64,000 nt of DNA, from assembly GCA_951406725.2 (NCBI GenBank), contig OX597817.1:106020001-106084000 (forward strand), in the 5' to 3' direction. The notes below the pieces were generated by a model. That model ran no database searches and was not told the DNA's origin. It worked only from the letters and a program-made list of their open reading frames with translations. Below, one piece after another: positions 41,036 to 41,824 of the stretch (its first letter is position 1; each line of letters opens with the position of its first letter). A program made the translations under genes and the position numbers. Origin of the DNA: Octopus vulgaris (taxonomy: Eukaryota).

Positions 41036-41376
41036 TGGTAAGGGTAAAGACCCCCTTCGGTCATGAATGACCATGGGATTGCACCTAGAAAGTTACCCTC
41101 CTAGACACAAGTCTGGGCAAGGTTGTTTTTATGGAAGGCCAGCAGTCGCCCATGCATACCAGCCTCCCTCTCCATGCCACCAGTGTTATCCAAGGGAAAG
41201 ACAAAGGTCGATACAGCTTGGCACCAGTGACGTCGCAACTCATTTCTACAGCTGAGTGAACTGGAGCAACGTGAAATAAAGTGCCTTGCACGAGAACACA
41301 ACACGCAGCCCGGTCCGGGATTCGAGCTCACAACCTCACGATCGTAAGCTCAACGCTCTAACCACTGAGCCATGCG
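41036..41376 (-). mobile_element. tRNA-headed SINE family B, young
   Basis: Minus-strand head gcatggctcagtggttagagcg…gagctcgaatcc has A and B boxes. Colinear with 9598-9915 and CpG-rich. Confidence 0.9.
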
Positions 41377-41392
41377 GTATATATATATATAT

Positions 41393-41524
41393 ATTTATTT
41401 TATAGAAGGAGCTTCTACAGGACTAGAACTGTTTCATTCAAAAGAAATCATCAGGAAGCTTCCTGATGATTTCTTTTGAATGAAACAGTTCTAGTCCTGT
41501 AGAAGCTCCTTCTATAAAATAAAT
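41393..41524. repeat. Perfect 132-bp palindrome (no spacer) encoding a hammerhead motif on each strand
   Basis: Two 66-bp arms centred on GAAG|CTTC (41458/41459), checked base by base. Confidence 0.95.
41457..41507 (+). ncRNA. Type I hammerhead ribozyme motif (identical mirror copy at 41410-41460, minus)
   Basis: Reads AGCUUC-CUGAUGA-U-UUC-UUUU-GAA-U-GAA-ACAG-UUCUAGUC-CUGU-A-GAAGCU. Stem I is 6 bp, stem II is 3 bp with a U.U at 10.1-11.1, stem III is 4 bp, and the triplet is GUA. Confidence 0.75.
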
Positions 41525-41824
41525 TAATTTACTCTGCTATGTATTGAGTACCTTATTTACTGTGGTTAACCCCGACTCAACCCGGGACCTACATATATAT
41601 ATATATATATATACATATATATGGTACATATTTTCTTTTTCTCCTTTTATTCTGTTATTTATTTCAGTCATTTGACAACTGCCATGTTGGAGCACCACCT
41701 TCAGTTGAACAAATTGACCCCAGAACTTATTCTTTGCAAGCCTAGTACTCATTCTATTGGTCGCTTTTTGTCGAACTACTACGTTACAGGGATGTACATA
41801 TTTACCACACAGCCACTCCTATGC

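Follow-up and report, generated by a model that had tools for sequence, protein, structure and literature searches.

How does a perfect palindrome carrying a ribozyme on both strands come to stand within a run of simple repeat? We addressed this question for a locus of Octopus vulgaris (assembly GCA_951406725.2, contig OX597817.1), lying in a stretch of 64,000 nucleotides here called the window. Positions 41393-41524 form an exact, spacer-less palindrome of 132 bp (66-bp arms, center 41458|41459), as a previous sequence-only reading of this DNA had claimed. Microsatellites aside, no other palindrome of the 64-kb window comes near it in length, and its hairpin (-106.1 kcal/mol, z -23.8) was equaled in stability by 0 of 200 shuffles. 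Beyond the palindrome only the right arm extends, again as previously read, up to approximately 41592, where microhomology to the TA repeat obscures the exact limit. The whole is a head-to-head stub insertion of 200 bp (41393..41592, no strand assigned) set between a left (41378..41392) and a right (41593..41622) (TA)n target flank, both read from the sequence; among the best 30 copies, its boundaries recur in 30/30 on the tail side and in 29/30 on the mirror side. With A41457 numbered +1, the tailed arm (41457..41592, plus strand) corresponds to RNA positions +1 to approximately +136 and matches the native pLTR-tail-ORF junction of long copies (L081, L083, and L223). The inverted, tail-less arm (41393..41460, minus strand) corresponds to +1 to +68; the short arm ends between +66 and +70, with a mode at +68, in 36 of the 49 perfect-center copies. 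What we call the tail is the 68 nt (41525..41592, plus strand) between two putative RT start sites; it belongs to exactly one arm in 49/49 perfect-center copies, and in native copies the sequence runs on into the start of an ORF. Target-site duplications are unreadable in the (TA)n at insertions of these stubs. With neither promoter nor ORF of its own, the 200-bp stub was probably dead on arrival. A repeat with a tRNA-like head (41040-41377, minus strand), likely a tRNA-derived SINE, adjoins the left TA flank, and similar sequence also follows the insert in another copy (L082).

Both strands carry the same hammerhead, which was recognized by inspection of core and helices and had been proposed in the earlier reading. 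The minimal type I form on the plus strand spans 41457..41507, with a predicted cut after A41501; by perfect symmetry, its mirror on the minus strand spans 41410..41460, with a predicted cut between 41416 and 41415. On each strand a stem I of 6 bp (+1 to +6 with +46 to +51) is followed by CUGAUGA (+7 to +13), a 3-bp stem II, GAAA, and a 4-bp stem III whose 8-nt loop, UUCUAGUC, contains the CUAG noted before; GUA comes next, and the cut is predicted after +45, directly before stem I' (+46 to +51). CUGANGA, GAAA, NUH, and three helices are thus all found, while the base of stem II is a U-U and not a pair. The self-complementary AGCT common to both arms (41457..41460, no strand assigned) starts stem I, so that the center indeed falls inside its 5' strand, as first described. 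Among 44 copies (52 columns), the frequent variants lie at N7 or at two loop II positions in 3/3 cases (p 0.0005-0.013 for this restriction), a distribution as would be expected under selection for the hammerhead fold. Searches of Rfam gave no hammerhead match, neither at the gathering score nor at E<=10; its miRNA-precursor matches, which fall short of that score, were rejected as reflections of the hairpin. When the half unit was folded without constraints, it did no better than shuffles (z 0.18 to -0.6).

The palindrome is one of many. Exact patterns for two sequence subfamilies recovered the same perfect center at 646 genome loci (346 + 300), and this center recurs, with both arms matched, in at least four sequence subfamilies; the homologue search called for by the sequence-only reading therefore yielded inversion centers far from random. 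By exact patterns, the core has 1,724 matches in the genome and the tail at least 3,368, and the right arm plus tail occurs in at least 40 identical copies (the best 40 of 447 candidates scored), nearly all with a mirror arm. A sample chosen only by the tail (the first 83 of 3,368 matches) comprises 55 mini head-to-head inserts, 16 loci whose sequence continues into the native upstream pLTR, and 12 of other kinds. Most stubs display other, heterogeneous junctions around +1. In the perfect-center copies examined, 49 from the first 50 listed among the 346, one arm always ends near +136 and the other near +68 (49/49). A subfamily variant at +18 is A in both arms of 13 copies and T in both arms of 32, with 2 discordant; this matching implies that both arms derive from the same template type and that the palindrome formed repeatedly. 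The arms of older stub copies have drifted apart. The sample of loci includes a few local duplicates: in L182/L183 and L214/L215, pairs separated by 2.5 and 8 kb, both the stubs and their flanks are identical, and these represent local duplications and not new insertions.

Judged by its motifs, the stub is an insertion of a Hydra-clade Penelope-like element (PLE) in (TA)n. The tail continues at nine loci, where it runs into an RT-endonuclease ORF (e.g. L078, L081, L083, and L084). Frame translations contain IRWR, SDKT, YRDD, and a CNCPDKTTC (CxCX5C) linker, without CCHH, and the C-terminus comprises an endonuclease-like region in which a VY...YIG-type motif and downstream R, H, E, and N are common to the homologues. 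Pfam profiles gave no GIY-YIG match for this ORF, and the Hydra-clade EN has been described as divergent (PMC8557442); the RVT_1 match was weak (E 0.0033), with 369 homologues and the YRDD motif. The motifs agree by eye with those of Hydra-1_Obim (Octopus bimaculoides) in the supplement of PMC8557442, and the octopus element shares with the Hydra clade, this member included, the RWK-like motif (here RWR), DKT, the CxCX5C linker, the absence of CCHH, a late CxxC, the canonical hammerhead, and (TA)n targets (PMC8557442). Hydra-1_Obim nonetheless represents a different family: its listed hammerhead differs, and the 13-nt core motif does not occur in the available passages of that supplement (PMC8557442). 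Direct pLTRs were found at L223 and L225 (4,340 and 4,709 bp from pLTR to pLTR) and inverted ones at L061-L068, with bodies of 2.4-7 kb in L061-L067; the four long copies translated are all broken (4/4). Units are thus approximately 4.3-4.7 kb, owing to a long simple-repeat 3' region, whereas published Hydra-clade elements are <3 kb (PMC8557442), a length that is a general trait of the clade and not a diagnostic motif.

Why the inversion falls on this particular base is addressed by the native copies. In these, the first base of a TATA box lies at -29 from the stem I A in 47/48, with a spacer of variable sequence, and a pyrimidine occupies -1 in 48/48. Arm ends of the tail-chosen sample fall on +1 in 31 of 96 cases and upstream of it in 6; this count is preferred to a tally of 113 arms, with 39 ends at +1/+2 and 0 between -1 and -6, for which the choice of loci depended in part on a G at +2. 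At 71 loci (TA)n is joined directly to +1, the base at -1 being G in 43, T in 13, C in 8, and A in 7, and a lone untemplated G separates pure (TA)n from +1 in 38/71 (both hand counts). The G is supplied neither by the repeat nor by the native -1 base; the C, on the other hand, fits a mirror-arm remnant in 8/8 cases. Internal junctions (+37 to +50) show a lone G in 0/21, against 38/71 at +1 (Fisher p 2e-6), and as background a G follows ATATATATAT at 56/890 window positions, with the caveat that AT runs are most often terminated by G (56/80). The G at -1 of inverted junctions (78 of the first 100 of 246 rows) was not counted as cap evidence, since the other arm can template it. In L1 and SVA, untemplated 5' G has been attributed to cap copying (PMC3287187). 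Taken together, the TATA box at -29, the 5' ends piled at +1, and the lone untemplated G make the center a likely transcription start: from these sequence features, the palindrome is most likely centered on a capped RNA start at A41457, where stem I likewise begins, and the fixed center is better explained by a capped RNA 5' end than by fold-back at stem I. Head-to-head junctions a few to approximately 30 nt upstream of +1 also exist (L038, L044, L071, and L072), with templates extending into the pLTR.

We consider it probable that the stub was built from two cDNAs, primed on the two cut strands of the target, that ran off the capped 5' end and annealed. In such a mechanism, the TATA promoter of the pLTR would start a capped RNA at A41457, the element protein would cut both target strands in (TA)n, and both cut strands would prime cDNA at the insertion site on one RNA. 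RT would begin internally, at both borders of the tail (+68 and +136); with the 5'-proximal pLTR used in place of the 3' copy, only 68 and 136 nt would be reverse-transcribed. Both cDNAs would then run off the capped 5' end and terminate in the self-complementary AGCT, over whose 4 nt their ends could pair, with subsequent fill-in producing a spacer-less palindrome. In vitro, the Poseidon_Ac protein cuts both strands at AT-rich DNA and starts RT at two tail-bounding internal sites on an uncut RNA template (PMC11167929), a two-start precedent from a Poseidon and not a Hydra element; the portions of that source available to us draw no link from the two starts to an inverted arm or the 5' end of the RNA (PMC11167929).

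The principal alternative is fold-back self-priming, in which a tail-primed cDNA, having arrived at the 5' end of the RNA, would turn back on itself at AGCT/stem I, use 66 nt of its own sequence as template, and then transfer to the TA target; it is close to the self-priming proposed by Arkhipova 2013 (PMC3846280), although there an antisense template was invoked, while the octopus center lies at a cap-marked start. Support for it comes from the arms themselves, which match by subfamily and hold private changes in common (L074, L124, L128, and L132), and from short templated fillers that resemble snap-back synthesis (L239 and L241). The junction class without one A corresponds to the product of a 3-nt-loop hairpin; the second commonest junction (approximately 37 of the first 100 of 246 rows, hand count) is equally expected from 3-nt-loop fold-back of one cDNA. 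Private changes were more numerous in the short arm (41 versus 26 events), a bias in favor of fold-back, but the difference was not significant (p 0.09) and includes alignment artefacts. Among 48 inserts the tailed arm extends further 5' in 25, as fold-back allows, with 10 ties, but the tail-less arm does so in 13 (e.g. L037, L090, L170, and L210, the tailed arm of L210 stopping near +72). Fold-back of a tailed cDNA cannot add sequence that was not copied, and fold-back of a tail-less one cannot make a tail; these four copies are therefore not fold-backs. Nor does fold-back yield L066, where the ORF lies on the side of the tail-less arm, and solo tail-less stubs starting at +1 exist as well (L235 and L237). 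Longer-reaching tail-less arms, L066, and the solo stubs thus indicate that both outer ends behave as RT starts. Finally, the perfect center, the commonest class, would need a 2-nt loop under fold-back, whereas it is the natural 4-bp overlap of two cDNA ends. Fold-back may account for part of the junctions and for the short fillers; as the origin of the stub it seems unlikely. The sequence-only reading had attributed the inversion to PLE-type reverse transcription with fold-back priming at stem I: the PLE RT origin and the non-random centers hold, yet the fold-back itself is excluded for 13/48 copies and for L066.

The ribozyme bears on the state of the template: each arm runs through the position of the predicted hammerhead cut, and the RNA that was copied must therefore have been intact there. 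Looking for cut templates, we found 16 head-to-head loci near the cut site, 7 centered on a second AGCT and approximately 4 with an arm end at +46, and, among 21 direct junctions, 2 clear and 5 ambiguous cases. The few copies beginning near +46, a class confounded by the second AGCT and by TA microhomology, faintly suggest cleavage in vivo. A broader and more tentative reading is that inverted pLTRs are what PLEs necessarily produce: their RT-endonuclease, acting as a dimer, would prime on both strands of the target and copy a single capped, uncut RNA from its tail borders. Across the genome, the stubs would then preserve a fossil record of where the cap lies, of the two RT starts, and of a rare class of templates cut by the ribozyme; most insertions of the family would be abortive copies of the RNA 5' end, and the hammerhead, beginning at +1, could switch the RNA between its roles as mRNA and as template by a timed removal of its own cap.

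A palindromic, non-autonomous master element (SINE- or retrozyme-like), transcribed and copied as one 200-nt unit, would suit the very uniform size and the hundreds of near-identical copies. It appears rather improbable, given that the same center with matched arms occurs in at least four subfamilies, that most stubs have other junctions around +1, and that the stub lacks a promoter while the same arms flank the 2.4-7 kb bodies of L061-L067. Non-LTR retrozymes do resemble the stubs, as short non-coding repeats with a type I hammerhead related to PLE pLTRs, but they form head-to-tail tandems of 200-400 bp and circular RNA, whereas the octopus stubs are head-to-head and dispersed (PMC7229834; bioRxiv 10.64898/2026.07.22.740005): 55/83 tailed copies are head-to-head, with direct pairs only occasional (e.g. 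L073 and L079). Still less probable is a selected dsRNA or regulatory hairpin serving as ADAR or Dicer substrate. Computed folding agrees with the earlier suggestion that read-through RNA would form a hairpin, here of 64 bp, masking the ribozyme (-106 kcal/mol for the full hairpin versus -7.3 for the hammerhead); against selection, insertion mechanics fully explain the structure, the arms of older copies drift apart, and no coding ORF of at least 150 aa and ordinary composition lies near the locus (ORFs read without introns). An assembly or amplification chimera is very unlikely, for although none of the public contigs among the matches listed bridges the center by 31 nt on each side, a chimera should give random centers and mirrored flanks, while the center is fixed in 646 loci with unequal, subfamily-matched arms, the flanks are unmirrored, the arms differ by private changes, and 12/12 sampled words are present in two public runs.

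Octopus is an animal with heavy RNA editing, and its genome holds several hundred perfect and some thousands of near-perfect stubs predicted to form hairpins. The architecture itself limits the surprise of the finding, since PLE insertions that combine inverted pLTRs, a palindrome at the junction, and a tail on one side only are already published (PMC3846280; PMC8557442). Published insertions of EN+ PLEs, whose inverted pLTR is 5'-truncated, share with the stubs the head-to-head inverted pLTR, the palindromic junction, the one-sided tail, and the AT-rich target; in octopus, by contrast, the insert is reduced to two pLTR stubs as the majority product (55/83), and the tail measures 68 nt against a published 30-40 bp (PMC3846280; PMC8557442). 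Poseidon_Ac is alike in its two tail-bounding internal RT starts, the cutting of both strands, and the uncut RNA (PMC11167929). In L1 twin or dual priming, both target ends likewise prime cDNA and junctions show microhomology or filler, but the parts do not overlap, whereas both octopus cDNAs would copy the 5' 68 nt and so give a palindrome (PMC2837659). To these precedents the octopus family contributes an example from the Hydra clade, a center that bears the signature of TATA box plus cap, and copies that exclude pure fold-back. Our literature search, which covered few subscription journals, found no report of cap-marked or double-primed PLE palindromes; the available text of PMC13282606 mentions Penelope, but not Hydra, hammerheads, or palindromes. 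The formation of inverted PLE ends and the role of the hammerhead are stated as open questions in section 15 of PMC8557442. On both, the octopus family offers sharp predictions, namely the exact base of the cap, two positions at which RT begins, a template left uncut, and a rule for the junctions, and its footprint helps to explain how the mirror halves of PLEs are built.

Several copies of the family display further arrangements. Palindromic stubs of approximately 110 bp, centered at the second AGCT just past the predicted cut, occur at L227-L232 and 7 other loci. Between the Hydra-family inverted pLTRs of L062 lies a second, unrelated PLE ORF (L062:2902-5224, minus strand) with a CxxC linker and matches to RVT_1 (E 2.6e-10) and GIY-YIG (E 3e-6), presumably Neptune-like; it would be either a nested insertion in the TA run or carried cargo. 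This RT/GIY-YIG ORF was dropped as the partner of the stubs, as it occurs once and the Hydra ORF directly follows the tail. In L063, L065, L067, and L068, inverted pLTR pairs stand 0.5-4.8 kb apart around simple-repeat-rich sequence without a long ORF; these are truncated or non-autonomous forms. Other copies are head-to-tail (L073, L079, and L085), with a piece reaching the ORF start joined to a new copy from approximately +1, which suggests rarer RT starts further downstream, combined with template jumps.
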